The notes under the pieces are model-generated. The model saw only the letters and a list, made by a program, of their open reading frames with translations. It ran no database searches and was not told the origin of the DNA. A DNA stretch of 64,000 nucleotides from Verrucomicrobiia bacterium. Lineage in GTDB: Bacteria; Verrucomicrobiota; Verrucomicrobiia; Limisphaerales; UBA1100. How positions within the stretch are numbered: position 1 is the first letter of the stretch; each line of letters opens with the position of its first letter. The DNA lies in the NCBI GenBank assembly GCA_014239365.1, contig JAAZZB010000006.1:6307-70306 (forward strand), written 5' to 3'. A program made the translations under genes and the position numbers. This document shows, piece after piece, positions 44,265 to 61,647 of this stretch.

Positions 44265-44265
44265 A

Positions 44266-45573
44266 ATGAAAAATTCCTCCAACCCCTGCAACAACGCCAG
44301 CCACATCACCCGCCGCACGATGCTCCAAGCCACCGGCCTCGGCGGGCTCGCGTGGCTCACGCCGGTTGCTCATTTACTTGGGCGCGCGCAGGAAAAAGCT
44401 CCCGCCCACGCGCCCGCCAAATCAATCATTATGCTGTGGATGGCCGGCGGCCCAAGCCAGTTGGAAACCTTTGACCCGCACGCGGGAAAAAAAATCGCCG
44501 GCGACACCCGCGCCATCAACACCTCCGTCAAAGGCGTGCAATTCGCCCACGGCCTCCCGCAAGTCGCCGAAGTGATGAACGAGCTCACCCTTGTGCGCTC
44601 GATGAACAGCAAAGAAGGCGACCACGAACGCGCCACGTACAACGTCAAAACCGGCTACCGGCCCGACCCCACGCTGATTCATCCCTCCATCGGTGCCGTT
44701 CTCTGTCACGAACTGCCCGATGCCGAAATGGACATCCCGCGCCACATCTCCATTCTCCCCGGCCAATGGCCCGCGCGTGGCGGCTACCTCGGCGCGCAGT
44801 ACGACGCCTTCAAACTTTACAACACTAACGGCCGCGCCGGAAACATCACCGCCCGCGTGCCACCCAAACGATTGGACAACCGGCTCGCCGCCTTGAAACA
44901 AGTCGAACAATCCTTCGCCCGCGGCCGCCGCGCCGACCTCGATGCAACATCCACGATGCACAACGCCACCATCCAAAAAGCCCTGCGGATGATGAACTCT
45001 GATCAACTCAGCGCCTTCGACATCACCCAAGCCCCCGCCAAAACCCGCGCCGCATTTGGCGACACCCAATTTGGCCGCGGCTGCCTCGCCGCCATTCAGC
45101 TCATCGGCGCCGGCGTCCGCTGCGTTGAAGTCACCCTCAACGGTTGGGACACTCACGCCAATAACCACAAAGCCCACGTCGCGCAAAACGCCATTCTCGA
45201 TCCCGCATTCGCCTCGCTCATCCGCGAACTACGCACCCGCAAACTGCTCGACCAAACCATCGTCATCTGCGCCGGCGAATTTGGCCGCACCCCCAAGATC
45301 AATCCCGCCGACGGCCGCGACCATTGGCCCACCGGCTTCTCCATCGCCCTCGCCGGTGGCGGCTTCCGCGCCGGCCACGTCCACGGTGCCACCGACCCCG
45401 ACGGCAAGAAAATCGTAGCCACCGACAAAGACACCATCCGAGTCGCCGACATCCACACCACCATCCAACACGCCCTCGGCATCGAATACGCCAAAGAACT
45501 CATGACCCCCATCCTCCGCCCCATGGCCCTCAGCGACGGCCGCGTCATCCAGACTTTGCTGAAGCAATCATAG
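44266..45573 (+). CDS. DUF1501 protein with Tat signal
   Basis: ATG 2 nt after the upstream stop codon. RRTMLQATGLGG and DGRDHWP. Confidence 0.85.
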   Translation: MKNSSNPCNNASHITRRTMLQATGLGGLAWLTPVAHLLGRAQEKAPAHAPAKSIIMLWMAGGPSQLETFDPHAGKKIAGDTRAINTSVKGVQFAHGLPQVAEVMNELTLVRSMNSKEGDHERATYNVKTGYRPDPTLIHPSIGAVLCHELPDAEMDIPRHISILPGQWPARGGYLGAQYDAFKLYNTNGRAGNITARVPPKRLDNRLAALKQVEQSFARGRRADLDATSTMHNATIQKALRMMNSDQLSAFDITQAPAKTRAAFGDTQFGRGCLAAIQLIGAGVRCVEVTLNGWDTHANNHKAHVAQNAILDPAFASLIRELRTRKLLDQTIVICAGEFGRTPKINPADGRDHWPTGFSIALAGGGFRAGHVHGATDPDGKKIVATDKDTIRVADIHTTIQHALGIEYAKELMTPILRPMALSDGRVIQTLLKQS

Positions 45574-45658
45574 CTTCCAGATTTCCTTCAACTTGGAGTT
45601 GCGTCTTCTGGCGATGGGCGCATACTGGATTTATCGTTTCACCTTACCACGGATTATT

Positions 45659-48619
45659 ATGAAAAAAATTCTTCTCTCTTTGTTGTTTTCACTCCTCGCA
45701 ATTTTCACCACAACGGCGGTCGCGCAACCGGCGGCGGATCTTGCATTGACCAAACAAACCCGGGGCATCGCCGTGGTCACCGGGCAAGGTGGGCGTGTGA
45801 TGGCGCAGAACGTTTTCGAATTGGCAAACAGCAGCGCGTACACGATTTATTTTCAGTCGCCCGATGCCGCCACGGTGCTCGCTGTGCGCAAGGCGGCGGA
45901 TGGCGCGGGGCTTTTGGGGCAGCGCGTGTTTGTGGAACAAAGCGAGCTGGACCGGATTTGCCTTGGGGATAATATGGCGGATGTGGCGTTCGTGAATGGA
46001 GTTAAAGAAAAAGAAATCCTGCGCGTGCTGCGGCCCGGTGCCGTGGCAACGATGGGCGACCGACGCATCACCAAGCCCGCTTCTAAAAAAACCGACGCGT
46101 GGAGCCATCCGTTTCACGGGCCGGATAATAATCCACAGTCCACCGACGCCGTGGCGCGCGCGCCGTATCTCACGCAGTTTATTCAAGCGCCGAAATTTAG
46201 CCCAATGCCGCAGATCACCGTCGCGGCGGGTGGCCGCGTGTACCGCGCCTTCGGCCACATCGCGCACAAGGCGAACCAAAACGAAATGCTCAACACGCTC
46301 ATTTGCGCCAGCGCGCACAACGGCATCATCCACTGGAAACGCAAGCTCACGCCGGGCTTTATGATTCACCGCAACACAATGGTGGCCACGGACGATGCCT
46401 TGTTTATGGCGGACAACGTATCGTGCAAAATCATCGACGCGCGCACGGGCAAAGTGCGCGATGAAATCATCATCCCCAAAGGCGTGGGCGACGGCCCAAC
46501 GTGGAAATGGATGGCGATGGTCGATGGCACGCTGTACGCCTTGATTGGCGCGAAGGAAATTTCTGTGAAAACCGTCCCCTCCGGCAAACCCGGCCTCGGG
46601 CATTGGCCGTGGGGAATGTGGGAAGGGCACGATTACAAAAATCCGAAAACCAATTTTGGTTATGGCCGCACGTTTGTGGCGATTGATTTGAAGACCAAAA
46701 AAATCAAATGGCAGCATTCGGAACAGGAATACATCGACGCGCGCGGGGTGTGTTTGCGCGATGGGAAAATTTATTTTTACAGCCCCAAGAAATTCCTCGC
46801 CGCGATCGGCACCAACGGCAAACCGGCTTGGCGCAACTCGGACCAAGATTTGCTCGAGGCCATTGCGCCCCACGCGCGCGCGCAGCATTATATCACCGGC
46901 TACGCAACGACCGCGTACATCAAGTGCACGAAGGACGAGATTTTCTTTTCCGGCCCCACACGGCCAAATCTAGTTTCCGCTTCCACGAAAGATGGCCGAT
47001 TGTTGTGGCACAAGAAAGGCGGCGGCAACGTGCAGCTCGTGTTGCGCGAGGAAGGAATTTTTGCCGCAGGCGCGCAGCGCAGCAACGGCGGGATGGTTCT
47101 CGAATACAAAACCGGCAAAGTGAAAAGCGAAATGCCGTGGCGCCGCGCGTGCACGCGCGCCACCGGCAGCATCGACAGCGTTTTCTTCCGCGCCAGTGGC
47201 GGCACGGTGCGGATGGATGTGCCAAGCAACACCGCCCAACACATCGCGCCGATGCGGCCGCCGTGCCAGGATGGCGTCATCATTTCCGACGGCAATCTTT
47301 TCTGGGGCCCGTGGATGTGCGGCTGCCAACTTTCGCTCTACGGCCACATCAGCCTCACCGCCGCCGGCAACCAACTCGCCAGCCCCGGCGAAGCGCGCTC
47401 ACAATTTGAACCCGGAGAAGGAAATCTCAAAAACGTTCGCCCACTCGCCGCCCACAAAAATGATTGGTCAGTGTACCAAGGCAACAACCGCCGCACGTCC
47501 ACGACCGCGTTGCCTTTGCCCACCCAGTTAAAGGAGCGCTGGAAATTTCTCGCCCCCACCGCCGCGCTGCCCACTGCGCCGGTCACCGCGGGCGGGATGA
47601 CCTTCATCGCCAATCGCAGCGGCGTGATCCGCGCGTTCGGTGCCAACGGCAAAATGATGTGGGAAACGTACACCGGCGGCGCGATTTATTTCCCGCCAGC
47701 GGTCGCTCAAAACCGTGTGTATTCCGGCAGCGCGGATGGCCGCGTGTATTGCCACGAAGCCGCCACGGGCCGCAAGTTGTGGAGCTATCGCGTGGCGCCC
47801 ACGGAGCGTTGGATCGCGGTGTTCGGTAAACTCATTTCCACTTGGCCGGTCGCCGGCGGTGTGTTGGTGGAAGATGGCACGGTCTATGCCTCGGCTGGCA
47901 TCGCGCATTACGACGGCACGCACGTGGTCGCGCTCGACGCCATCACCGGCAAACTCAAATGGCACAACGACAGCAGCGGATCGCTCAACAAAAAAGTGAA
48001 CAGCGGCGTGAGTATGCAGGGCAGTTTATTTATGGAAAACGGCAAGCTCTGTTTCCTCGGCGGCGGCGTGCAGGAAGTGGCGCAGTTCAACCTCGCCGAC
48101 GGCAAGTGCGTGAACACGCCGGTTAACAATCCGCAATCCGGATATCGCACCGCGTTTTATCCGTACTACCCCGAGTACGGCAACTACGTTTCGCTCGCGC
48201 ACACACTGGCCGATGGACGCGAATTGGTTTTCGACGCCAGCTATGAGGGCAACAAATTCAACTACCTCCACGCACTGGCCGCGCTGCCTCCCGGCGCGCC
48301 GAAGCTCACCAAAGAACGCGCCCGCTGGAACGCCCGCCGTGGCGCGCCCCAACGCAAAGTGCTATGGCGCGACGCCCGCAGCCGCCGCTTCGCCGGATTC
48401 ATCGTCGGCAAAACCCGCCTCCTCGGCGTCGGCGATCAAGGCGCGGAGAAGGACCCCTTCATCACCCTCATCAACCTCAAAACCGGCAATGACGAATGGA
48501 TCGCCAAACTCCCCGCCCAACCGATCAAAGGCGGCGCAAGCATCGACAGCGCCGGAAGGATTTTGGTGACGTTGGTGGACGGACGGGTGATGTGTTTTGA
48601 AAGTCCCAAGGCCCAATGA
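45659..48619 (+). CDS. PQQ-like beta-propeller repeat protein with an N-terminal degenerate methyltransferase-like domain (paralog of 8..3205)
   Basis: Signal peptide MKKILLSLLFSLLAIFTTTAVA. Rossmann-like IAVVTGQGG...TIYFQSPD...LRVLRPGA. Propeller blades (GRLLWHK, GKMMWET, GRKLWSY, GKLKWHN). Cys-rich module shared with 8..3205. Confidence 0.8.
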   Translation: MKKILLSLLFSLLAIFTTTAVAQPAADLALTKQTRGIAVVTGQGGRVMAQNVFELANSSAYTIYFQSPDAATVLAVRKAADGAGLLGQRVFVEQSELDRICLGDNMADVAFVNGVKEKEILRVLRPGAVATMGDRRITKPASKKTDAWSHPFHGPDNNPQSTDAVARAPYLTQFIQAPKFSPMPQITVAAGGRVYRAFGHIAHKANQNEMLNTLICASAHNGIIHWKRKLTPGFMIHRNTMVATDDALFMADNVSCKIIDARTGKVRDEIIIPKGVGDGPTWKWMAMVDGTLYALIGAKEISVKTVPSGKPGLGHWPWGMWEGHDYKNPKTNFGYGRTFVAIDLKTKKIKWQHSEQEYIDARGVCLRDGKIYFYSPKKFLAAIGTNGKPAWRNSDQDLLEAIAPHARAQHYITGYATTAYIKCTKDEIFFSGPTRPNLVSASTKDGRLLWHKKGGGNVQLVLREEGIFAAGAQRSNGGMVLEYKTGKVKSEMPWRRACTRATGSIDSVFFRASGGTVRMDVPSNTAQHIAPMRPPCQDGVIISDGNLFWGPWMCGCQLSLYGHISLTAAGNQLASPGEARSQFEPGEGNLKNVRPLAAHKNDWSVYQGNNRRTSTTALPLPTQLKERWKFLAPTAALPTAPVTAGGMTFIANRSGVIRAFGANGKMMWETYTGGAIYFPPAVAQNRVYSGSADGRVYCHEAATGRKLWSYRVAPTERWIAVFGKLISTWPVAGGVLVEDGTVYASAGIAHYDGTHVVALDAITGKLKWHNDSSGSLNKKVNSGVSMQGSLFMENGKLCFLGGGVQEVAQFNLADGKCVNTPVNNPQSGYRTAFYPYYPEYGNYVSLAHTLADGRELVFDASYEGNKFNYLHALAALPPGAPKLTKERARWNARRGAPQRKVLWRDARSRRFAGFIVGKTRLLGVGDQGAEKDPFITLINLKTGNDEWIAKLPAQPIKGGASIDSAGRILVTLVDGRVMCFESPKAQ

Positions 48620-48747: not shown

Positions 48748-50610
48748 TCAGGATGCACTCATCGTCGGCACGTCCTCGGGCGCGTCAGCGGGCGATCCAC
48801 TCCAAGCCCATTTGGCAGCGGTGCCGATGAGGAGGAAAGCGGCGGCAAGGATGATGATGAGACTTCCCCAGCGGACTTGGAGGCCGGATTTTTCGGGGTT
48901 GAGCACGGGCTGAAATTTGCGGCGGCTGGAGGGGGTGATGAGCAGCCAGCCGCTGACGGTTTTGCGGTTTTCGGTAAGGCAATTGCCGAGGGCAAACAGG
49001 CCGGCTAACGCGCCCAGAACGAGCCAGAAATTTCCCCGCCAAACAAACACATCGCAAATGATGGCGACGACGGCTGGGAAAAATAAAATCTCAACCCAAT
49101 GGCGCAGTAAACGCGGGAGGCTTCTCAGTGCGGCGAGCGCCACGGTGACGCCGAGGCCGGTGAGGGGGGCGATCCACCAGAGGTGCAGCCAATGGATTTG
49201 CCAAAGATGCATCACGCCTGCGGCGGCGAGCAGCGTGGCGGCGGTGAGCAGCGGCACGTTGTAAAAGGGCAGCGCACGGAATTGGCCGGGGCGCGTGCGC
49301 GGGAGCGGTTTGATGTCTTTTTCTTTGGGGATGAGCTTCGCGCCATTCCAAAAAAACGCCACCACCATTCCGATGCTGAGCGACCATTTGAGCCAAAGAT
49401 GCCACCACTCGCGAATCGGTTCAACGAGTGACACAGAAACAACCGCTCCAAAAATTAACCCCATCAGGATGACGTGCCAGATTTTGCGCAGGGCAAAACG
49501 CGCAGCGGCTGAGTTTGTGGTTGAGGAATGCACGGTGCGGTCCAGCGCGGGCATTAGGTTTACCCCCGCCGCGCCGAGCGCCATCACGAGTGCAGCGGCC
49601 AAGCCGATTCCAGCAAATGCCCATAGCATTGAAGCCTTCAAGGTTTCGATATTGACGCTGTTCCCAATCAGCATCACCGCGCCGGTGGCCAACGCCACGA
49701 GCACGAAGCCGCCTTGGGCGGCGAGGAAATGGCGAAAGCCGTGCCAGAAATCGATGTAGCCGATTTTAGCGGCGGCAGCTTTGGCTTCGGGCGTTGGGAA
49801 AAATGAATCCTCCACGCGGCGCATTTGCAACCCGCCAAGGCCAAGCGCGCAGCCGATGGAGAACACGACCATCAAACGCCCGGTGAATCCGTCGGCGGGT
49901 TTGAATGTGTCTGCTGTTTCTGCCGGAGGTGTGACCGGTGGCTTTGGCGTAACAGGCGGAGTTGGAGTGATGATTTTGGGCGTCGTGGGGCCTTTGGCGA
50001 TTTCGTCCGGCTTGGGTTTGGCGGATTGAGATTGAACGATGGCGGCGATCCATAAGCCGAGCACCACCAACGTAGCCATACCGAGGCCGGTTCCGATGAC
50101 GATTTTTTTGTGCTGCTTGATCCAATCCAAAAAAGTAGTAACGGTGGCAACTTCCGGCGTGGATTTGCGTTCGCGTTTGAAAACAAAACCGAAACTGACA
50201 ATGAGCGTGCCCAAACCCAACACAAACAGCCAACCGACCGTGCCGCTTGTGGCTCCGCCGCCGGCTTTTTGGGCGATGAGGACGATGCCCATCACAAAGG
50301 CCAACAGCGCGGAGGCGAGTGCGGTGGTGAAGAACGGTCGGGCTTTGATCCATGCCCACGTGGCGGAGGGGGCGCGTTCTGGCTTCAACTGCGGCTCGGG
50401 TTGAACGGTGACCGGCTCGGGTTCGACTACGGGGATTTCCTCCGCCACGGGCTGGCGGTTTTTCTCGAGCTGTGCCTCGAGGGCGGCGCGGAGTTTGTCG
50501 AGATCCACCGAGCCATCGGTGGGCAGGCGCAGCCGCAACTTCACATCACCCGCGCCCGTCGCTTTGGAAGGGGACGCGGGGACGCGAGGTTGATGACGGG
50601 GCTTAGACAT
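48748..50610 (-). CDS. Hypothetical 620-aa polytopic membrane protein (about 95-aa Pro/Glu-rich cytoplasmic head, then ~14 TM)
   Basis: Long ORF starting 3 nt after the PLD gene's stop codon. Many hydrophobic segments. No recognisable family. Confidence 0.7.
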   Translation of the reverse strand: MSKPRHQPRVPASPSKATGAGDVKLRLRLPTDGSVDLDKLRAALEAQLEKNRQPVAEEIPVVEPEPVTVQPEPQLKPERAPSATWAWIKARPFFTTALASALLAFVMGIVLIAQKAGGGATSGTVGWLFVLGLGTLIVSFGFVFKRERKSTPEVATVTTFLDWIKQHKKIVIGTGLGMATLVVLGLWIAAIVQSQSAKPKPDEIAKGPTTPKIITPTPPVTPKPPVTPPAETADTFKPADGFTGRLMVVFSIGCALGLGGLQMRRVEDSFFPTPEAKAAAAKIGYIDFWHGFRHFLAAQGGFVLVALATGAVMLIGNSVNIETLKASMLWAFAGIGLAAALVMALGAAGVNLMPALDRTVHSSTTNSAAARFALRKIWHVILMGLIFGAVVSVSLVEPIREWWHLWLKWSLSIGMVVAFFWNGAKLIPKEKDIKPLPRTRPGQFRALPFYNVPLLTAATLLAAAGVMHLWQIHWLHLWWIAPLTGLGVTVALAALRSLPRLLRHWVEILFFPAVVAIICDVFVWRGNFWLVLGALAGLFALGNCLTENRKTVSGWLLITPSSRRKFQPVLNPEKSGLQVRWGSLIIILAAAFLLIGTAAKWAWSGSPADAPEDVPTMSAS

Positions 50611-52303: not shown

Positions 52304-52353
52304 GGTAGGGACGCGCTATGCGCGTCCGTGGACACGCGCAGCGTGTCCCTACC
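52304..52353. terminator. REP-like double hairpin (GGTAGGG ... CCCTACC), probable bidirectional terminator
   Basis: GGACGCGC-TAT-GCGCGTCC (52309-52327) and GGACACGC-GCA-GCGTGTCC (52330-52348), inside the outer GGTAGG/CCTACC arms. The ATPase stop codon (52349-52351) lies in the outer arm. Confidence 0.6.
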
Positions 52354-55300
52354 CTTCTTCTTTGTCATCTGCGGGCGGTTGCGGTTGCTGCGCTTCTTGC
52401 AGTTGGGCGAGGAGTTGTTGGATGAGGGCGTCGCTGTCCTGCACCATATCCTGGCTGACATCCACAACCACTTCAGTGGGCTGAGCGGCGTCGAGACGTT
52501 CGCGCAGTTCGCGATGGCGTTCCTGATAATTCGCAAAGAGCACGCCAATGTTCGACAGCGCCGCCTGCATTTGGTTGGCCTGCGTTTGGGATTGTGAATC
52601 GCGGATGGTATCGGCGAGCGTGGCGTTGCTTTGCTCAATAAATTCGGCGAGTGCCATTTGGCGGTCGGCAAGTCCGGATTGGCTTTGCTGGGCAGCCGCG
52701 GCGGCGGTGCTGGATTGCTCCAAATATTTTTCAAACGCCCCGCGCAAGGCGGCAAGGTTTTCGTTGGTTGCATCGCTCGGCGCCGTGCCCTCGGGAGTGG
52801 GCGCGGCGGTTTGCTGACTGGCGAGGTGTTGAGAAATCGTGTCGCGAAGGGCGTCGAGGCTTTCGTTCATCCCGCCGAGGTCAAGCTGGGTGGTGCGAGG
52901 TTTGGAGAGCTCTTCCTTGAGCGTGCCCTGAATGGAATCGAGACCGCCGGTGAATAGCGACAATTGACTGACCACGCGGCTGACAGGATCGCCTTGATCG
53001 CCGCCCTGCAAAAATTGATTCCGGCCATAGGTTTTTTTGATGTCCTCCCAGCGCGCTTCCTCTTCTTCGGTCATCACGCCGATGAGCTGCTTGAACTTCA
53101 GGAAGTTGGCCTCCGCGCCGGTGGTGAGTGTTTGACTTTCGCCTTTGTAATGATCAAGCACAAGATTCATCAGCTCGCGCTTATTCATAATCGGCAACAC
53201 CTTTTCGGCGAGGCGATTCATATTGCGATAGGAGCCCTGCATTTTGAAGGCCGGTTCCGTGCGAAACTCATCCGCTTGCCCGGCGCTCTCGATGTACAAC
53301 TGATTTACTTTCAAAACCACATCGCGCAGCACGGCGAGCTTTTTGAGGACGTTGAGTAATTCCTCCGTTTCATTCGCGGAATAATTTCCCTGCAACTCGA
53401 TGCCCTCGCGTTGGTCAGTCTCGGCCATCCGAATGAACGCTTGAATATCTTTTTGTGCCGCCTTAGCGAGCGGCTGTAAAACGGGATTGGAGGTGATGGC
53501 GTTTTCGATGTAACTGCCGTTAAACGCTTCCTCGCGGCCTTTCATGTCGTCGCCGAGATTGTAAGTGTCGGCGCGGTTAGCGAGCATATCGGGGATGCGA
53601 AATTTTTCACCGCTCTCGGTATAAGGGTTGCCGGCCATCACAACGACGACGCGGCGGCCGCGCATATCGTAAGTTTTGGGTTGGCCGCGCCAGACGCCTT
53701 CGATCTTGCGTTGGGCGTCGCAGAGCGAAATGAATTTTTGCAAAAACTCAGGGTTGCAATGCTGGATGTCGTCCACGTAAATCATCACGTTATCGCCCAT
53801 CTCCAACGCGAGATTGAGTTTGTTGACCTCCGCGCGCGCACCGGCATTTGGGGCATCCTCGGGATCCAACGAAGACACTTCGTGGCCCAACGCGGGGCCA
53901 TTGATTTTCATAAAAATCAGGCCCATCCGATTGGCGAGATATTCCATCAACGTCGTTTTGCCGTAGCCCGGTGGGGAGATGAGCAGCAGCAAGCCCATTA
54001 AATCCGTGCGCTTGCCTTCGCCGGTGGCGCCGATTTGCTTGGCGAGGTTATCGCCCACGATGGGCAAATAAACCGTGTCCACCAATTGATTGCGCACAAA
54101 AGACGACAACACGCGCGGCTCGAATTCGTGGAGTCGCAGCAATTCTTTTTCGTCCTCAATGAGTGTTTGTTTTAACTCCTGATATTGCTCAAAGCGCGGC
54201 ACCGATTCGCGCGCGAAACGGCCGAGCTTTTCCTGAAACGCAAGGTAGTCGAAATCGTAGCTGCCTTCCTGCACGGCGTCGTGCGCGCCTTGCAATCCGG
54301 TAACGGCTTGGGCGGTAGCGGCTTTTACGACGGCTTGTTTGTGATGATGGCCGCAGAAAATCAGCGCGGCAACTTCCTCGAGATATTTATTTTCGCCATT
54401 GCGTGAGAGCAGAAAGCCGCGCACCCAGTCGCGGACGAGTTGATAATGGCTGTGCGGATTTGCCTTGAGCGGCTTCTGCGCCTTTGAAAATTCTGATTCA
54501 CTACCTTTCTTGACAAGATGACGCTCGAACTCCGTGAGTAATTTATCCGCTTCCTGACTGACGGCCCAATCATTGCCATTCGTAATCTCGTAAAATAAAT
54601 ACTCACCCGCCGGCACTGCGTCACCTTCGGGAAACAAACCCGTCTCATTTACAAAACCCGTGACCAATTCCTGCAACGCCGCGATGTATTCACGCTGAGT
54701 AGGATCGCCGGGAAACAGCTCGTTGCGTTTGGCGAAGCCCTCAAGCTGAGCGGCCCACAGTTTACGCGTATCTTCAGGACAAAAATGATGCCAATACACC
54801 GCACCACACGCCCGCACACGGGGATGGTAGCGCGCCAGCTGCAATGCGGCATGAGTGTTGAGCAGCGCGGCAAGGATCTTACCTGCATCTTGGTCATGGA
54901 TCCCTTTGGTATAGGCTTCGGCATAGCGATCGCCCATGAACTCCTGTATAATTTTGAGGCGATCGGCTGCCTTCATGGCGGCCACCTCGGCAAGACGTTC
55001 GCCGCCTTCGTGCTCAAGTTTTTGCCAGAGCAAATAAGCGAGGTATTCAGCGCGGTAAACTTCTTTATCCTCACTGATAACCTGCTGATCCCAAACTGCG
55101 CGCGTGGCGAGGAAAGTTTCGTCCTCGATGGGATCGAAATACTGAGTGCCGGTGAGATGCAAATTCTGCTCGTCGCCGCGGCGCACGATCGTGAGGTCGA
55201 GCGGTTGGGTGTTAACGGCGAACTTGTGTTTGCCAAACTGAATGACGTTTTGGCCGTCGACGTAGAGTTCCTTTTTGTCTTTGAGCTGGCGGACGGCTTC

Positions 55301-57853
55301 TTCGTGAATGGTTTTGAGTTGGGACTGGATGCCCTCCGCTTCGCCGGCTTTTTCGAGTGCGGTGAGTTCCTCCACGCGTTCGCGAATGGAATCGATAATC
55401 CGATCGGCGGCCATATAGCCGTTGATGTCGTTGACATCGTCGAAGGTGCCGAGCTTGTGCTCCACGCTTTTGAGCATTCGCTCAGCGGAAGACGTCAGCG
55501 CGGTGGCTTTGCGGTTTCGGATTTCCTCGAGCTGCAGCCGTTTCTGCTCGAAGGCGGCTTCGAGTTCGCCGCGCTTTTCATCAAGCTGCTCGATGTACTC
55601 CGGGAAATCCGCGAAGTCGCCGCCTAAATCCTCCAGTTGATTGATGACGTTATTAAAATATCCGTCGCACTTCTCCGGCGAATCGGACATATCCAAATAA
55701 TTTACCGCCGTTTGGCTGAGCAATAAAATCTGGGCATTAAACTGCGCCGCACCCTCGGCACTCATCAACGTGCGCGATTTATTTTTGAGCGCTTCTTTTA
55801 CCTGATTCACCACCTGATAAATTGCGGTGATGGATTCGATGATTCGGGTTTGCTCGGTGGTGTCATCGATTTGCAAACTGCGCACAATGTCGATGAGCAT
55901 CTCGAGGTCTTCACCGGCTTGGGTGATTTCCGCATTCAACTCTTTGGCCTCGGCCATTTTGGTGACGCCCTCGACTTGGCTGCGCTGGGCATCGGCGCGA
56001 TCGCGATAGGGATCCAGCGCCTCGGGTTGAAGCAGAAATTGAACGCACGATTGCGAAAGCGTTTCCACTTGCTCCTTCACCTCCGCCTCAAGGGCGTCCA
56101 TCGCGGCGGTGTCGATGAAGCGCACCTCGTCTTTGAGCGTGATGATTTCCCCGCGCATTCGGCGCAGTCCGCCGAGGTTAGCCACGAAATCATCAACCGA
56201 CCGGAAGTCCGCGCGGAGGACTTGATTGAACAACGTCTTGGCGCGCTTTTGGATTTCATCGGTCTTTTCTTTGGCGTCAAGGCGGAGGCGTCGCACTTTG
56301 TCAAACTCGGCAATTGCCTTTTCGGCAGAGCTGCCGATCTCTTTTAGAATTTCCACCACGCTGCCGCCATCGCCGGAGGTCAGCCACGCGTATGAATTGG
56401 GAATGCTTTCGCACCGGCGCGCCACGTCGGCGTAAAGGTCTGCGTAAGGCGATTCTTTTTGGATGAGGATGAGCACCTCATTGCACTCGGCCATCGCGCG
56501 CACCACGGATTTATTGCCCACTTGGTACAGGAACGATTCGCGGTTGCCGCTTTCCGGTTCGAAACCGGGTTGATAAAATGGCGTTTGGCGCAGTTGAATC
56601 GTGTGATGTTTGATGGCCTCTTCCTCGGCGCGGAAGCTCACAAGATCGCCATTGGGGAACAGCGAAAACCCGTGGCACGTAATGCGCTCGGTAACTTCCT
56701 GTTCGATGAGGCGATAGGGCAACAGCGCGTACAGCCCGCTCATCCGGTTGAAAAAGACATACAGAAAATCTTCGCCATTGGGCGAGGGCACCGTGCGTTC
56801 GAGCACCATTTCGCCCAGCTCGCCTTCGTAGCGTTTCAGTTCGCCGGTTTGCAGGTAGTAGCCATCGGGGAAAATCAGCCCGTGCTCCTCGGGCAACATC
56901 ACGCACGATTGGCCCAGCGTATCCACGCGATGCACGGCCTGAAGTTTTTCGTTGAAAATAAAATAGCGCGTTTGCTTTTCGCGATAGGGCGTCATCTTCA
57001 GCAAAATCAACGAGCCTTGGATGGCGTATTGGATTTCGGCATCGCCCACTTTTTGATTCGCGTCCACCACCTCCTCGGCGTAGATGCCTTCGCCGGTGGC
57101 GGTGTTGTCCTCCACTTTGATCGTGAGATCGCCGCCGACGCATTCCACAAACACGCGGTCCTCGATGGATACGTGCGGGTTGTCGCCGTGCCGAACCGCA
57201 CTGCTCGCCGGAGTTTTCCACTGAAAATTATACTGGCCGGGAAAGCCTTGGCGAAGATAGTCCGGCGCGCTGCGGTCATCCTCGTAAACCAGCTCGCCAT
57301 CTTTGTAGAGCCACTTGAACACCGTCACATCATCCACCATTTTGCCGGTGCGAAACACCATGTACAGGTGAACGCCAATTATGGCGAACCGGTGGAACGT
57401 GGCGGATTGATCGATTTTGAAAAGACGCGAGAACGATTCTTTGAAATGTTCGTCCTGTAACAACGTGAGGTCGCCCTCGTGGAACGTCTGCGCCTCGGCG
57501 TCATATTCAAACACGCTGAAGACATCACTCAACTGCCCTTGCTTGAGGCCGAGGTTTACGTTGAAGCCAAAAAGAAAACGATTGTGGCCGAGCTGAATCA
57601 TATCGCGCGGCTCGCAATTGAGCTGCGTGGACACGCGATCCATTTTCTTCAGCTCCAGCTTGCGCGTGCCAAAGACTTCCGCGCGTTGCTCGTCGAGCGT
57701 GCCCAATCCCTCGCGCAATACCTTGGCCTGATCGGTCAGGCGTTGCTTGATGAGATCGTACGCGCCGCCTTCCAGCGCGGTTGATGCGCCTTCCGCGGGG
57801 GTGCCGCTGTCGCCACTGTCAGGAGGTTCCGCCATCGGGAATTTGGAATCCAA
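52349..57853 (-). CDS. Giant (1,834 aa) single-module AAA+ ATPase with a beta-rich N-terminal domain and long coiled-coil region
   Basis: Walker A SPPGYGKTT (GYGKT at nt 53954-53968). Walker B VMIYVDDIQ (DD at nt 53768-53773). MAGNPYTESGEKFRIPDMLANRA resembles the MoxR/AAA_5 NP..G..(L/I)P...(D/N)R segment. An alternative start is at 57835. Confidence 0.85.
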   Translation of the reverse strand: MDSKFPMAEPPDSGDSGTPAEGASTALEGGAYDLIKQRLTDQAKVLREGLGTLDEQRAEVFGTRKLELKKMDRVSTQLNCEPRDMIQLGHNRFLFGFNVNLGLKQGQLSDVFSVFEYDAEAQTFHEGDLTLLQDEHFKESFSRLFKIDQSATFHRFAIIGVHLYMVFRTGKMVDDVTVFKWLYKDGELVYEDDRSAPDYLRQGFPGQYNFQWKTPASSAVRHGDNPHVSIEDRVFVECVGGDLTIKVEDNTATGEGIYAEEVVDANQKVGDAEIQYAIQGSLILLKMTPYREKQTRYFIFNEKLQAVHRVDTLGQSCVMLPEEHGLIFPDGYYLQTGELKRYEGELGEMVLERTVPSPNGEDFLYVFFNRMSGLYALLPYRLIEQEVTERITCHGFSLFPNGDLVSFRAEEEAIKHHTIQLRQTPFYQPGFEPESGNRESFLYQVGNKSVVRAMAECNEVLILIQKESPYADLYADVARRCESIPNSYAWLTSGDGGSVVEILKEIGSSAEKAIAEFDKVRRLRLDAKEKTDEIQKRAKTLFNQVLRADFRSVDDFVANLGGLRRMRGEIITLKDEVRFIDTAAMDALEAEVKEQVETLSQSCVQFLLQPEALDPYRDRADAQRSQVEGVTKMAEAKELNAEITQAGEDLEMLIDIVRSLQIDDTTEQTRIIESITAIYQVVNQVKEALKNKSRTLMSAEGAAQFNAQILLLSQTAVNYLDMSDSPEKCDGYFNNVINQLEDLGGDFADFPEYIEQLDEKRGELEAAFEQKRLQLEEIRNRKATALTSSAERMLKSVEHKLGTFDDVNDINGYMAADRIIDSIRERVEELTALEKAGEAEGIQSQLKTIHEEAVRQLKDKKELYVDGQNVIQFGKHKFAVNTQPLDLTIVRRGDEQNLHLTGTQYFDPIEDETFLATRAVWDQQVISEDKEVYRAEYLAYLLWQKLEHEGGERLAEVAAMKAADRLKIIQEFMGDRYAEAYTKGIHDQDAGKILAALLNTHAALQLARYHPRVRACGAVYWHHFCPEDTRKLWAAQLEGFAKRNELFPGDPTQREYIAALQELVTGFVNETGLFPEGDAVPAGEYLFYEITNGNDWAVSQEADKLLTEFERHLVKKGSESEFSKAQKPLKANPHSHYQLVRDWVRGFLLSRNGENKYLEEVAALIFCGHHHKQAVVKAATAQAVTGLQGAHDAVQEGSYDFDYLAFQEKLGRFARESVPRFEQYQELKQTLIEDEKELLRLHEFEPRVLSSFVRNQLVDTVYLPIVGDNLAKQIGATGEGKRTDLMGLLLLISPPGYGKTTLMEYLANRMGLIFMKINGPALGHEVSSLDPEDAPNAGARAEVNKLNLALEMGDNVMIYVDDIQHCNPEFLQKFISLCDAQRKIEGVWRGQPKTYDMRGRRVVVVMAGNPYTESGEKFRIPDMLANRADTYNLGDDMKGREEAFNGSYIENAITSNPVLQPLAKAAQKDIQAFIRMAETDQREGIELQGNYSANETEELLNVLKKLAVLRDVVLKVNQLYIESAGQADEFRTEPAFKMQGSYRNMNRLAEKVLPIMNKRELMNLVLDHYKGESQTLTTGAEANFLKFKQLIGVMTEEEEARWEDIKKTYGRNQFLQGGDQGDPVSRVVSQLSLFTGGLDSIQGTLKEELSKPRTTQLDLGGMNESLDALRDTISQHLASQQTAAPTPEGTAPSDATNENLAALRGAFEKYLEQSSTAAAAAQQSQSGLADRQMALAEFIEQSNATLADTIRDSQSQTQANQMQAALSNIGVLFANYQERHRELRERLDAAQPTEVVVDVSQDMVQDSDALIQQLLAQLQEAQQPQPPADDKEEG

Positions 57854-57886
57854 TCCATCCGGCCGAAGCCGGAATGGGAAATGGAT

Positions 57887-60097
57887 TTATTTCGCCGCCT
57901 TATCGCCCAGCAACACGCCGGAGATCATATCGCCGATGCCGGATTCTTTCACCGCCTTTTGCGCCTGACGGATCACCGATTTCGTGCCGCCGTCATCCGC
58001 TTGGCTCACCAACTTGGTGAGCAGCGCCGAGATGGTAAGGTTTTTCACGTCCTCGCTGGAGACACCCAGATCCTTCACCCAACCGCGAAGTTGGGTTTTG
58101 AAATAATCGGGGTCGCCGTTGAAGAAGGTGTTCTTCACATCGGTGATGGATTGGCTGTTGTTCACCAAACGATCGACCGATTTGCCGTAGCTGACCGAGC
58201 GCACGACCTTCTCGAAGAAGTCGTTCTCGCCGCCCACGATGTCGATGTTCGCGCTCTTGAGGGCTTCGCCCACCACGCGCGCCTGCGCCTCGGCCACATC
58301 TTTTTGGATTTGGATCTCGGCCAAATCCACGTCGCGATCCTTGTTGAGTTGCAGTCGGAATTCTTCGTGATCCTGCGAGGCTTTGTTGAAGATCTCGATG
58401 GCCTTGGCCATTTCGGTTTTGGACACCGCCTGAGCGAGGCCCATCTTTTCCGTACCGGCGGCTTCGGCAGCTTTCACCGCGTCAATCGCTTCACCTTCGC
58501 CCTTGCCTTCCGCCGCTTTGGCAAGGCCGCTCGCCTCGCCTTGCTTGGCGATCACCGTGGCCTCGGCCACGCCGAGCGCTTCCTCGGCTTGAGCGTCCGC
58601 CTTCTTCGCATCCGCCTTGGCGGTGATCACGCGGGCCTCGGCCAAACCATCGGCGCTTCGCATCGCTGCGGTGCCTTCGGCTTCCTGTTGCATGGCGTGG
58701 TTGCGTTTCTCGCTGGCCTTGGCTTCCGCCTCGGCGATGGTGATGACCTCGTCGGCTTTCTTTTCCGCCGCTTGTTTGGATGCCTCGGCGCCGGTGACTT
58801 CGAGGTACAAATCTTTGTTGGCAATTTCCTTTTGCGCTTGGTGCAGTGCCTCGGCTTGTTTCACTTCTTCCACCAATGACGCTTCGGCTTTGGCGGTGGC
58901 TTCCACCATCAGCACGCGCTTGGCGCGGTCGGCCGACATATCGGCTTCCACATCCAACCGGCCTTGGTGTTGGGTGGTGACTTCTTTTTCCTTGGACTCC
59001 AAACCGGCCTGGCTCTCGGCCACTTCAAAGGCGGCCGCGATGATTTTGGCTTCCTTCTCCTGTTGCATCAGGCCGATGCGCCGCAGGCGATCCACTTCGG
59101 CTTGTTCGCCGGATTCAATTTTCTCCTGCTCCAAACGCAGCAAATCCTGATCCTTCGCGTACGTGGCACTCATCACCACGCGATCCTGCTCCACCTTGCG
59201 TTCCTCAATGTGTTGGCTGGCCTCGATCTCGGCCCTCTCGGAGACCTCGCGATTTTTCTGCACTTCCACCTGCGCCGCCGCGCCTTCGCGGGCCTTGGCC
59301 TCTTCCACGGCGCGGGTTTGTTTGGCTAAATCTTCTTCGTTTTGTTTGTCCAACTCGCGCTTCTCCATTTCGGCGCGGATGTTGTCGTTTTTAATTTCAA
59401 CATCCTTTTCCTGCGTACGCTTGTTGGTCTCCTCTTCCTTTTGGGCCGTGATGCGGTTGATTTTTTCAATGCCCTGCGCGTCGAGCACATTGGCGGGGTC
59501 GTGATCTTCGCGGGAAGTTTGTTCCAGATAATCAATCGCCACGTCCTCCAGTTTGTAGCCATTGAGATCCTCGCCAATTTCATTCACGATCATTTCGCGA
59601 AACTGGGAACGCTGAACATAAAGCTGACTGAAATCCATTTGCTTACCGGCCGCTTTCAAGGCATCGGAGAATTTTGCCTCAAACAAATTACGCAGCAGTT
59701 CGATTTCCGAGGCGCGCTCGCAACCCACCGCTTCGGCCACTTCCTTAATATTTTCCACCTCCGGCGCCACGCGCACATAAAACGCCACCTCGATGTCCGC
59801 CCGAATGTTGTCCTGACAAATCAGGCCGTCCTTGCCTTTCCGCGCCACCTCCAGTTTTTTCACCTGAATATCCATGATATCCCAGCGATTCAAAAAGGGA
59901 AACCGGAACATCCAATCCTTGGTGACCTTGAGCCCACCAACACCCGTCCGCACACCGGCCTCGCCGGCCCGGACTTTTTTCAGGCAAAACATTGAAAGAA
60001 AGGCAAGGATAAGCAGGGCTAAGCCAATGACAATGGCCGCCACCACACCGGCGGCAAGACCGCCAAGACTGATAAAACTAAGAACAGGTTGGATCAT
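57887..60097 (-). CDS. Long flotillin / SPFH (band-7) family membrane protein
   Basis: ATG at 60097 preceded by GGAGA. TM segment ISLGGLAAGVVAAIVIGLALLILAFL. SPFH core (GEAGVRTGVGGLKV...RFPFLNRWDIMDIQV). About 400-aa E/A/K-rich coiled coil and a globular C-terminal tail. Confidence 0.85.
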   Translation of the reverse strand: MIQPVLSFISLGGLAAGVVAAIVIGLALLILAFLSMFCLKKVRAGEAGVRTGVGGLKVTKDWMFRFPFLNRWDIMDIQVKKLEVARKGKDGLICQDNIRADIEVAFYVRVAPEVENIKEVAEAVGCERASEIELLRNLFEAKFSDALKAAGKQMDFSQLYVQRSQFREMIVNEIGEDLNGYKLEDVAIDYLEQTSREDHDPANVLDAQGIEKINRITAQKEEETNKRTQEKDVEIKNDNIRAEMEKRELDKQNEEDLAKQTRAVEEAKAREGAAAQVEVQKNREVSERAEIEASQHIEERKVEQDRVVMSATYAKDQDLLRLEQEKIESGEQAEVDRLRRIGLMQQEKEAKIIAAAFEVAESQAGLESKEKEVTTQHQGRLDVEADMSADRAKRVLMVEATAKAEASLVEEVKQAEALHQAQKEIANKDLYLEVTGAEASKQAAEKKADEVITIAEAEAKASEKRNHAMQQEAEGTAAMRSADGLAEARVITAKADAKKADAQAEEALGVAEATVIAKQGEASGLAKAAEGKGEGEAIDAVKAAEAAGTEKMGLAQAVSKTEMAKAIEIFNKASQDHEEFRLQLNKDRDVDLAEIQIQKDVAEAQARVVGEALKSANIDIVGGENDFFEKVVRSVSYGKSVDRLVNNSQSITDVKNTFFNGDPDYFKTQLRGWVKDLGVSSEDVKNLTISALLTKLVSQADDGGTKSVIRQAQKAVKESGIGDMISGVLLGDKAAK

Positions 60098-60327
60098 AAT
60101 TTTCTCCGAAACAGTTGAGTTGTTAATTGCACAAACATATTGCGACACAGGACACCGCGCACGTTGGAGTACCGCCCGAGGGAAGCAATGCGTGGTGTCG
60201 GGGAGAGAGTACACAAAACTCCCAAAGGCGCGCCACTACAATCTTGAAGAAAGTTTATAATCGCTCAAACCCAAAAAAGCCGAAAAAACCGGTGGCACAT
60301 TGCCCGAGGGCGAGTTAAATTCTCCCA

Positions 60328-61647
60328 ATGAAGACCACACTGCTTTCTCTCACCCTTATTTTTGCCTTCACCTCCACCCTCGCAATTGCCGCCGATCCGC
60401 TGAGCAATTCGCCTTCGCTCCTCAACCGCCTCAAAGACGAAAACGCCCGCGGGCAGGATCAATGGATTTACAACGACCTCAAAAAAGCCATGGCCGAAGC
60501 CAAGCGCACCGGCAAGCCCATCTTCGTCACCTTTCGCTGCGTGCCGTGCCACGCCTGCAAAGCCTTTGATGCCGAGGTGGCCAAAGACAACCAAGCCATC
60601 CGCGCGCTCGCCGAAAAACAATTCATCTCCCTCCGCCAAGTGGAAATGAAAGGCGTGGACCTCAGCCTCTTCCAATTCGATTACGATCTCAACTGGGCCG
60701 CCATGTTCATCAACGCCGATGGCGTCGTGTACGGCCGCTACGGAACCCAATCCGCCGATGGCCCCGATGCCTTCAACTCCATCGGCAGCCTCGAGAAAGC
60801 CATGCGCCGCGTGCTTGCGCTGCACGCCGGTTATCCGAAAAACAAAACCACCCTCGCCGCCAAAAGTGGCGCACCCAAGCCGTACCGCACCGCGATGGAA
60901 ATGCCCGGCCTCGAAAACAAAAACAATTACCGCAAAACCACCGAACGCAATAACTGCATTCATTGCCACAACATCCACGACGCCGAAAACCACAAGCTCC
61001 ATCTCGAAAAAAAGATGACCCACGAAACACTTTGGCGCTATCCATTCCCCGATAACCTCGGCCTCAGCATCGATCCCAAAGACGGCCAGCGCATCGCAAA
61101 AGTTTCCCCCAACAGCGCCGCCGCCCGCGCCGGATTGCGCCCCGGCCAAACGCTCACCCACGTCAACAGCCAACCCATCATCTCCATCGCCGACATCCAA
61201 TGGGTGCTGCACAATCTGTCCAACGACGCCGAACTCATCCGCATCAACATCGCCGGCAGCTCCCGCCAACATCTCATCCGCACCGCACCCGGCTGGAAGA
61301 AAACCGATATTTCCTGGCGCGGCTCATTGTGGAATCTGCACCCGCGCCTGCGCGTGTGGACGCCCGAGGTGAAGGATGACGAACTCAAGCGCCTCCGCCT
61401 CCCCGCCGGGCACCAAGCCCTTAAAGTCAAATGGATCAACCAAAATAGCCCCGAAGGCAAAGCCGCCTCCCGCGCCGGACTTCGCCTCAACGATTACATC
61501 ATCGCCATCAACGGCAAACCACTCGCCAAAATGGGCCATCGCGAATTCAACACCCACGTCAAACTCAACTATAAATCCGGCCAAAAACTCCCACTCACTT
61601 TGATCCGCAATGGCAAACGCATCCAGTTCGAGTGGCCGCTGCAATAA
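60328..61647 (+). CDS. Secreted thioredoxin-fold protein with two PDZ domains
   Basis: Signal peptide. GKPIFVTFRCVPCHACK thioredoxin-like CxxC region. Two PDZ-like segments (AKVSPNSAAARAGLRPGQTLTHVN and QNSPEGKAASRAGLRLNDYIIAING). A second CxxCH motif (CIHCH). Confidence 0.75.
   Translation: MKTTLLSLTLIFAFTSTLAIAADPLSNSPSLLNRLKDENARGQDQWIYNDLKKAMAEAKRTGKPIFVTFRCVPCHACKAFDAEVAKDNQAIRALAEKQFISLRQVEMKGVDLSLFQFDYDLNWAAMFINADGVVYGRYGTQSADGPDAFNSIGSLEKAMRRVLALHAGYPKNKTTLAAKSGAPKPYRTAMEMPGLENKNNYRKTTERNNCIHCHNIHDAENHKLHLEKKMTHETLWRYPFPDNLGLSIDPKDGQRIAKVSPNSAAARAGLRPGQTLTHVNSQPIISIADIQWVLHNLSNDAELIRINIAGSSRQHLIRTAPGWKKTDISWRGSLWNLHPRLRVWTPEVKDDELKRLRLPAGHQALKVKWINQNSPEGKAASRAGLRLNDYIIAINGKPLAKMGHREFNTHVKLNYKSGQKLPLTLIRNGKRIQFEWPLQ

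Follow-up and report, generated by a model that had tools for sequence, protein, structure and literature searches.

A flotillin gene followed on the same strand by the gene of a giant DUF3686-family AAA+ ATPase forms a conserved two-gene unit across many bacterial phyla. The example analysed here lies in a window of 64,000 nucleotides (positions 6,307 to 70,306 of contig JAAZZB010000006.1) from a verrucomicrobial genome of the Limisphaerales, where the two open reading frames (ORFs) follow each other head to tail on the minus strand, flotillin first; both are present in the ORF list of the window and agree with gene calls on relatives, as the first-pass annotation of this DNA had proposed. 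Conserved adjacency had been named beforehand as the test by which the pairing could be refuted, and 85 of 94 related loci were found to carry a flotillin homolog upstream of the ATPase on the same strand; of the other nine, six are cut off upstream and three are orphan ATPases. It is probable that the pair acts as a membrane module. Its core is not new, because Ravi et al. 2024 (mSystems, PMC11237479; 2020 preprint) had already described the pairing as a prediction, namely a flotillin with a "novel AAA+ ATPase with beta-propeller and coiled coil". The pairing, taken at first pass to be uncharacterised, is already on record as a predicted phage-shock-protein (PSP)-associated module, and is uncharacterised in the sense that no experimental study of the ATPase was found in the literature searched, which also held no paper on DUF3686, on DUF7902, or on a 'DNA repair ATPase' together with flotillin.

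The 94 loci comprise 80 obtained, among the matches listed, from a scan of 185,579 species genomes (one per species), six annotated plasmid or chromosome records (Hymenobacter, Pseudomonas fluorescens pQBR103, Streptomyces, Proteus mirabilis, Deinococcus grandis and Vibrio campbellii), and eight contigs encoding exact homologs, which include Gimesia and the acidobacterium Sulfidibacter. Bacteroidota (33), Verrucomicrobiota (24), Planctomycetota (11) and Clostridia (6) account for most of the 80 scanned loci, alongside Desulfobacterota, Lentisphaerota and Fibrobacterota; Actinomycetota, Deinococcota and Gammaproteobacteria are contributed by the annotated records and Acidobacteriota by a homolog contig, giving at least ten phyla in all. 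At least 584 of the 600 matched stretches listed in the scan were confirmed, and the distribution is widespread but patchy. The ATPase family itself is large, with more than 4,000 clusters at 90% identity, and its N-terminal 700 aa match 820 representatives of 50%-identity clusters.

Fewer than 400 nt separate the two genes in 56/89 related loci. Gaps of 0.5–2.4 kb, found in 24 loci, are filled by small ORFs that are unrelated and differ from locus to locus, and it is therefore the flotillin-ATPase pair itself that constitutes the conserved core. Pairwise divergence of the flotillins is correlated with that of the ATPases (r 0.74, 70 loci), which fits inheritance as a unit and is not proof of interaction. 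The inserted ORFs (L020, L025, L037, L040, L042, L052, L080 and others, where L numbers denote individual loci) encode DUF559-like, PD-(D/E)XK GxxExxY-like and IS200/REP-transposase-like proteins, as well as small secreted proteins. Several PLSDB records that carry the module (NZ_OL790811.1, NZ_OL790812.1, NZ_LT559118.1 and NZ_CP050465.1) are 'plasmids' of 2–12 Mb that resemble chromosomes or chromids, and plasmid carriage is therefore rarer than the hit list suggests.

The flotillin of the window has the architecture recognised at first pass, hydropathy, Pfam and the translation agreeing on a predicted transmembrane anchor, an SPFH core and a long E/A/K-rich region. Residues 1–44 form the hydrophobic N-terminal anchor (mean Kyte-Doolittle hydropathy 2.95 over 19 residues), residues 41–189 match Pfam Band_7 (PF01145; E 7e-13, 49.4 bits against a cut-off of 23.6), and some 400 aa of E/A/K-rich sequence lead to a C-terminal tail. 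Pfam Flot (PF15975) gave no match at E≤0.01. Its start and its length of 736 aa are identical in independent gene calls on 96%-identical contigs, and NCBI names its homologs either 'flotillin family protein' or 'SPFH domain-containing protein'. With the window protein as query, phmmer recovers the flotillins of other phyla (for example L007 6625–8793 and L090 4696–6849) at E 1e-100 or better. These other-phylum homologs (L007 and L090; Pfam listings for L004–L006, L090 and L091) do not match Pfam Band_7 even at E 0.1, so that neighbourhood screens based on Pfam would miss most flotillin-ATPase pairs.

The longest ATPase ORF (52349–57853) opens at a TTG codon, and an ATG lies at 57835. The ATG is the better predicted start, because the resulting length of 1,828 aa is that of the gene calls on the 96%-identical contigs and because this first methionine is invariant in an 18-sequence cross-phylum alignment. 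The spacer between the flotillin stop and the ATPase is therefore 51 nt, and the values of 33 nt and 1,834 aa first put forward for spacer and protein are corrected accordingly. A terminator scan gave no terminator-like site in these 51 nt; a regulatory hairpin was also considered there and rejected, the predicted folding being at chance level (z −0.76 against shuffles).

From its N-terminus the ATPase consists of a DUF3686 domain, a helical region containing DUF7902, small beta and all-alpha domains, a single AAA+ module and a low-complexity tail. The DUF3686 assignment, which the first-pass annotation had put forward, proved correct, with a Pfam match over residues 40–482 at E 7e-153. Ravi et al. 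2024 (PMC11237479) described the fold of this region as beta-propeller repeats, and the domain is likely to be the docking platform of the ATPase. By profile comparison the DUF7902 region weakly matches the Habc helical bundle of syntaxin (E 0.016). In the AAA+ module, Walker A (GPPGYGKT, 1289–1294), Walker B (D1355–D1356), the sensor-1 residue N1403 and R1421, a candidate arginine finger, are invariant across phyla, both in the 18 aligned sequences and in 20 further ones; Walker B reads DD, where DE is usual. Since these catalytic residues are invariant across phyla, the protein is very probably an active nucleoside triphosphatase.

An AlphaFold2 model of residues 850–1660 (811 residues; 20-sequence alignment; mean predicted local distance difference test score, pLDDT, 83) begins with a small beta domain and continues through an all-alpha domain of about 230 residues and a long connecting helix to a complete AAA+ module with a helical lid. 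A pre-sensor-1 beta-hairpin, in which basic and aromatic residues are abundant, is modelled at about residues 1377–1390, and between beta-2 and alpha-2 the model has a loop with a short helix and no clear helix-2 insert. The best Foldseek matches (E ~5e-6) are RuvB, MCM, Rix7, FtsH and ClpX, with probability 1.00 to many AAA+ structures. The presence of one AAA+ module at about 1281–1407 had been read correctly from the sequence; its attribution to the MoxR/AAA_5 type is not secure, Pfam AAA (28.3 bits), AAA_22 (27.2) and AAA_5 (26.3) matching residues 1281–1407 about equally and RuvB and MCM giving the best folds. On the model, the module appears to belong, as a divergent form, among the AAA+ proteins with a pre-sensor-1 hairpin. 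Searches of the PDB with the ATPase, by sequence and by profile, returned P-loop similarity only, and hence no solved structure in the family, and NCBIfam gave the core proteins only sub-threshold matches to RuvB, CDC48 and FabV.

A second invariant feature lies outside the AAA+ module. In the all-alpha middle domain, where a helix begins, a G-x-H-D-x-D motif (G978, H980, D981, D983) is preserved in the same 18 cross-phylum sequences and in the 20 further ones; it resembles no known family and could be a metal-binding or catalytic site. In the Foldseek search with the 811-residue model the AAA+ core dominated the matches, and no lead emerged for the all-alpha domain or the motif.

In other lineages the canonical core comprises three genes, YqiJ-like, flotillin and ATPase. 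Among the first 89 loci phmmer detected, directly upstream of the flotillin, a YqiJ/DUF1449-like gene (~210 aa) in 57, as it did in 5/5 later loci, and a sensitive hidden Markov model (HMM) finds this gene in every locus with enough upstream sequence except those of the window clade and a locus from Lentisphaeria (L086); the loci where the HMM finds none are those truncated upstream, the three orphan ATPases, L086 and the window clade. First-pass annotation had recognised no NfeD gene, and NfeD/YqiJ-type genes are indeed absent from the locus and the whole window: the HMM, built from 58 YqiJ-like neighbours, matches nowhere in the 64 kb, and the gene is missing from 12/12 clade loci. HMMs built from related loci likewise gave no match to PspA or CesT/Tir in the window. 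Elsewhere, a CesT/Tir (YjfI)-PspA/IM30 dyad precedes the pair in the same operon in 17–20 loci, mostly from Bacteroidota but including pQBR103, and the full CesT-PspA-YqiJ-flotillin-ATPase form was recovered in Hymenobacter and many Bacteroidota loci. This repeated placement inside CesT/Tir-PspA operons fits the role in membrane integrity that had been suggested at the outset.

Much of this neighbourhood agrees with that described in PMC11237479, which also holds a three-transmembrane YqiJ/YuaF protein and CesT/Tir-PspA (example Dokdonia donghaensis ANH61663.1), a phospholipase D (PLD) in some Proteobacteria, and 'abbreviated' operons without PspA, in which PspA is encoded elsewhere. The authors of that study proposed a role akin to a chaperone's in how sub-membrane complexes assemble and in their dynamics, and noted that a known ATPase is wanting for most PspA homologs. 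PMC8581546 describes an SPFH protein that links PspA to the membrane in Bacillus subtilis, and NfeD partners have been proposed to promote SPFH oligomerisation (PMC13086221); this last paper, a survey of SPFH proteins in Pseudomonas aeruginosa, and a megaplasmid preprint do not mention the DUF3686 ATPase.

Two further aspects of the related operons were observed. A LexA-family regulator (helix-turn-helix plus S24 peptidase-like) is divergent from the operon in 17 Bacteroidota loci (L007 3586–4371; also, for example, L028, L029, L040 and L042), which suggests that in these lineages the module is induced by repressor self-cleavage. On pQBR103 of P. fluorescens SBW25 (L008, 84437–97641) the SPFH-ATPase pair closes a long co-directional cluster resembling E. 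coli yjfIJKLMC, with genes for YjfI, PspA/IM30, a rhomboid, DUF2491, DUF350, DUF1190 and a glutathionylspermidine-synthase-like protein.

The Limisphaerales locus is best described as a lineage variant, with no YqiJ, PspA or CesT gene in 64 kb, and with an orphan soluble protein (p264), a MitoPLD-like enzyme and a polytopic membrane protein (p620) beside the pair. p264 is homologous to genes that lie directly downstream of the ATPase, and co-directional with it, in the more distant Verrucomicrobiota loci L004, L005 and L006 (E 1e-17 to 1e-19). It is present in 12/12 loci of the window clade, always adjoining the ATPase, and an iterative search of the related loci found it in none outside that clade; an apparent 25-locus cluster containing p264 was rejected as an artefact of shadow ORFs. 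Its family numbers 206 proteins, unnamed or called 'hypothetical protein', whose named sources are Verrucomicrobiota or Pedosphaera. The two core genes had been taken for a self-contained operon; they do form a conserved unit, but p264, a conserved partner of the ATPase, had been overlooked, and a self-contained operon of two genes is therefore too simple a description of the unit.

p264 has a folded N-domain (residues 1–160), a low-complexity stretch rich in S and F, an acidic, proline-rich disordered linker and a conserved C-terminal motif, which reads D-P-x-x-(K/R)-(W/F)-x-x-(F/M)-P in the alignment and lies in the C-terminal peptide DPEDDKWTSFPDISFP of the window protein. AlphaFold2, run on a shallow alignment of sequences 60–85% identical to p264, places a 63-residue helix against two beta-hairpins and two helices, with pLDDT 82–95 over most of residues 1–160, and leaves the remainder disordered. 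Foldseek found no match for p264 among PDB folds (best E 0.39), hhalign found no relation to YqiJ, CesT, PspA or PLD, Pfam gave no domain, and PADLOC gave only a marginal match (DUF499 model, E 0.0017). The protein may serve the ATPase as an adaptor or regulator.

The HKD enzyme next to the locus had been flagged as relevant, and it is a recurrent accessory of the flotillin-ATPase system: in L006 and Vibrio campbellii (L094) a PLD homolog comes directly after the ATPase or p264, another lies near the ATPase in L033, and PMC11237479 records the same association. Its closest solved relative is MitoPLD/Zucchini, 'mitochondrial cardiolipin hydrolase' (9lkx/4ggj, E 7e-30, compared with 2e-10 for Nuc). 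PADLOC matches it to the DrmC (E 5e-11) and Mokosh PLD (MkoB) models and to generic PLD models, the DrmC match reflecting the shared PLD fold. The p620 gene starts 3 nt downstream of the PLD gene and is linked only in the closest subclade (L001–L003, L010 and L011); the protein had no match in Pfam or PADLOC.

Table. Positions of the flotillin-ATPase locus, its parts and its neighbours in the window
Feature	Position	Strand	Basis
Flotillin-family SPFH scaffold, 736 aa	57887..60097	-	ORF, translation, Pfam Band_7, hydropathy, relatives' gene calls
DUF3686-family AAA+ ATPase, 1,828 aa (database name 'DNA repair ATPase')	52349..57835	-	ORF, Pfam, alignment
DUF3686 domain of the ATPase, residues 40-482	56390..57718	-	Pfam E 7e-153
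DUF7902, residues 605-688, inside helical/coiled-coil region ~500-850	55772..56023	-	Pfam E 4e-22
Invariant G-x-H-D-x-D motif at helix start, all-alpha middle domain	54887..54904	-	Alignments, model
AAA+ core, residues 1283-1407	53615..53989	-	Pfam, invariant residues, AlphaFold2 model, Foldseek
Spacer from flotillin stop to ATPase ATG, 51 nt	57836..57886	-	Sequence; without terminator-like feature
Nested palindrome containing the ATPase TAG stop, between the convergent ATPase and p264 genes	52304..52353	.	Folding against shuffles
p264, soluble orphan protein, 264 aa	51506..52300	+	Homology to genes downstream of ATPase; alignment; AlphaFold2
Single-HKD phospholipase-D-family protein, 234 aa	50614..51318	-	Pfam PLDc_2 E 2e-31
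Polytopic membrane protein p620, 620 aa, ~10-12 hydrophobic segments	48748..50610	-	Hydropathy
Divergent intergenic region between flotillin and thioredoxin-PDZ genes, 230 nt; presumed promoter region	60098..60327	.	ORF list

SPFH proteins form large membrane-attached oligomers, and their partners are NfeD proteins and AAA+ machines; HflK/C cages enclose the AAA+ protease FtsH, and Vps4 disassembles polymers of the ESCRT-III/PspA family. We know of no ATPase dedicated to a flotillin. Against this background the explanation that we favour, and to which we would give about an even chance, is ATP-driven remodelling of flotillin assemblies or of their clients in membrane maintenance. Anchored in the inner membrane, the flotillin would, like other SPFH proteins, oligomerise at the cytoplasmic side as a lattice or cage; the N-terminal part of the ATPase, with its propeller and coiled coil, would dock there; and ATP hydrolysis would assemble, disassemble or reshape the flotillin assembly, or extract its clients, during membrane maintenance or repair. 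In this locus p264 could act on the ATPase as an adaptor or regulator, its C-terminal peptide serving as the tether, and the MitoPLD-like enzyme could supply local lipid modification (cardiolipin or phosphatidic acid). The specific mechanism, docking on the flotillin lattice followed by its remodelling or by extraction of clients, is put forward tentatively, as a possibility that falls short of an even chance. It is unlikely that the strongest version holds in full, in which the ATPase would be the first dedicated ATP-driven remodeller of a flotillin/SPFH lattice, doing in bacteria what Vps4 does for ESCRT-III, with p264 replacing YqiJ and tethered to the propeller, and the PLD coupling lipid remodelling to it.

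Several points weigh against this explanation. The flotillin-ATPase interaction, the ATPase activity and the membrane role are all predictions made from sequence, and the correlated divergence of the two proteins (r 0.74) may reflect shared phylogeny only. The ATPase has no membrane anchor by hydropathy and no recognised flotillin-binding domain in Pfam, and its AAA+ module, with DD in Walker B, resembles RuvB and MCM at least as much as it does protein-remodelling AAA+ proteins. Because the window lacks PspA, CesT and YqiJ genes, the link to stress responses rests on other lineages. p264 is inverted in the window and its closest relatives, where it converges on the ATPase gene, and, lying on the opposite strand, it does not share a transcript with the pair here.

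Among the alternatives, the logic of HflK/C-FtsH may apply in reverse, a flotillin cage that is not the substrate of the ATPase recruiting, confining or regulating it at the membrane, where the ATPase would work on other clients, for example membrane proteins that are misfolded or damaged, or PspA polymers. SPFH proteins repeatedly regulate AAA+ partners, as in HflK/C-FtsH and prohibitin-m-AAA, and more than one client could find a binding site on the large propeller and helical regions of the ATPase. PspA is a candidate, an ESCRT-III-family polymer that would need a remodeller, which shares an operon with the pair in 17–20 loci and for most homologs of which a known ATPase is wanting (PMC11237479). 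However, adjacency to flotillin (85/94) is far steadier than adjacency to PspA (~20/94), the window holds no PspA gene within its 64 kb, and the ATPase has neither a protease domain nor a transmembrane segment; we regard recruitment of this kind as somewhat unlikely, while taking it seriously. The proposal that the pair is an anti-phage or abortive-infection module, in which membrane or DNA events induced by phage would trigger the ATPase, with flotillin and PLD as membrane or nuclease effectors, draws on the patchy distribution (hundreds of occurrences, at least 584 matched stretches confirmed, among 185,579 species genomes), on frequent carriage by plasmids or megaplasmids (pQBR103; plasmids of Hymenobacter, Streptomyces and Deinococcus), on nuclease-like or transposase-like small ORFs between the two genes in several loci, on the PADLOC matches of the PLD to DrmC and Mokosh models (E 5e-11), and on the LexA-family regulator divergently upstream in 17 Bacteroidota loci. 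The abortive-infection reading, raised at first pass, found no positive support for the core genes: PADLOC-DB v2 gave no match to flotillin or ATPase (E≤0.01), nor to p620, and only the marginal one to p264. Moreover, the neighbours in the window are housekeeping or PVC-typical genes rather than a defence island, the strongest recurring partners are the envelope-stress genes PspA, CesT and YqiJ, and the PLD, itself present in a minority of loci, is much nearer to MitoPLD than to Nuc-type nucleases. A defence role is accordingly improbable.

The database label of the ATPase offers a further alternative, that of a DNA-repair or DNA-translocating motor whose link to flotillin is incidental or serves to tether DNA transactions to the membrane. 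As a name, 'DNA repair ATPase' goes back to how Pfam describes DUF3686, and NCBI names agree with it; the Joint Genome Institute calls some homologs 'MoxR-like ATPase'. In favour of such a motor are these names, the RuvB and MCM folds, the basic and aromatic residues of the pre-sensor-1 hairpin, and the LexA-family regulators that adjoin Bacteroidota operons. The likeness to RuvB, however, goes no further than the P-loop and the generic AAA+ core (sequence E 2e-3, fold E 5e-6), Pfam and NCBIfam detected no DNA-binding or nuclease domain in the ATPase, the literature searched held nothing on DUF3686, and every conserved neighbour is a membrane or envelope-stress protein. The label has no support from domains, neighbours or literature, and we give a DNA motor very little credence.

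Remodelling of flotillin assemblies or clients can be set beside several known systems. The nearest is the module of Ravi et al. (PMC11237479), which shares with the window the order of flotillin and propeller-AAA+ ATPase and an optional PLD/HKD hydrolase. Every described form of that module includes YqiJ/YuaF, whereas the window locus has neither YqiJ/YuaF nor the CesT/Tir-PspA dyad, and adds the Verrucomicrobiota-limited p264 beside the ATPase and, following the PLD, the polytopic membrane protein of 620 aa. Flotillin-NfeD pairs (E. coli YqiK-YqiJ, B. subtilis FloT/YuaG-YuaF, S. aureus FloA-NfeD) have the same flotillin architecture, and a YqiJ-like gene is also found upstream of the ATPase-linked flotillin in most lineages; the classical pairs lack an ATPase, however, whereas the window locus has the ATPase and no NfeD/YqiJ gene.

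The best-understood precedent for coupling a membrane-anchored SPFH scaffold to an AAA+ machine is HflK/C-FtsH (cited in PMC13086221). In contrast to FtsH, the ATPase of the window has no transmembrane segment or protease domain, has three times the size, and includes all-alpha, coiled-coil and predicted propeller regions; the flotillin and ATPase genes are neighbours, unlike ftsH and hflKC. Vps4-ESCRT-III/PspA likewise couples an ATPase to a membrane-bound, polymer-forming scaffold, a coupling seen here in gene neighbourhood, and in some lineages the pair lies inside PspA operons. The layout of p264 may recall recruitment to AAA+ N-domains through peptide motifs, but the window ATPase has no MIT domain, its AAA+ module is not of the classical Vps4/katanin type, and the scaffold is SPFH rather than ESCRT-III. 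With MoxR/AAA_5 chaperones the ATPase shares a weak AAA_5 match (26.3 bits against a gathering score of 22); it has no VWA partner gene among its recurrent neighbour families and no clear helix-2 insert.

Downstream of the pair, the palindrome that takes in the ATPase stop codon folds strongly (free energy −53.8 kcal/mol; z −8.3 relative to shuffles). It probably marks where transcripts from both directions end, or stabilises them; as it lacks a T-run, it goes uncalled in the terminator scan. The first-pass annotation had described it as a double hairpin resembling repetitive extragenic palindromic (REP) elements: the strong palindrome stands, but as a single copy in the 64-kb window it is not REP-like. 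Upstream, the divergent intergenic region of about 230 nt had been read correctly, and sigma-70-like matches near it are weak only (60126–60099 and 60033–60006). Base composition is unremarkable across the locus, and the 64-kb window yielded no tRNA or Rfam features.

Divergent to the flotillin, a gene at 60328–61647 encodes a thioredoxin-like domain and two PDZ domains, and a metallophosphoesterase gene follows; both neighbours are kept in the 96%-identical contigs and absent beside more distant loci. Further off, 42600–45573 and 45593–48619 hold a PSCyt2/PSD1 (DUF1549/DUF1553) and DUF1501 gene pair typical of Planctomycetes/Verrucomicrobia, then a 1,008-aa PQQ-like beta-propeller protein. 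The longest ORFs of PSCyt2/PSD1 and DUF1501 overlap by ~250 nt, and one of the two start codons is therefore probably further downstream. Such neighbours are typical of the PVC (Planctomycetes-Verrucomicrobia-Chlamydiae) superphylum, and the closest protein to the ATPase (P0001, 96% identical) comes from metagenome-assembled genomes labelled 'Verrucomicrobia subdivision 3 / Limisphaerales'.

What is new here is the quantified conservation of the flotillin-ATPase pair and the YqiJ-less lineage variant with p264, the core pairing being an already published prediction; the value of this window in itself is modest, and it holds no surprise for a specialist who knows the 2024 paper (PMC11237479). 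Few flotillin partnerships are linked as tightly as this pair, and its tractable carriers include P. fluorescens SBW25 pQBR103, Proteus mirabilis, Vibrio campbellii, Streptomyces, Gimesia and Hymenobacter. Thousands of database entries carry the wrong label of 'DNA repair ATPase', and functional proof would correct this annotation. More broadly, the pair bears on the assembly and turnover of SPFH/flotillin scaffolds and on their coupling to membrane repair, in bacteria as in eukaryotes, and its function, if shown, could reveal an energy-dependent step in membrane microdomains or in membrane repair of the PspA type.

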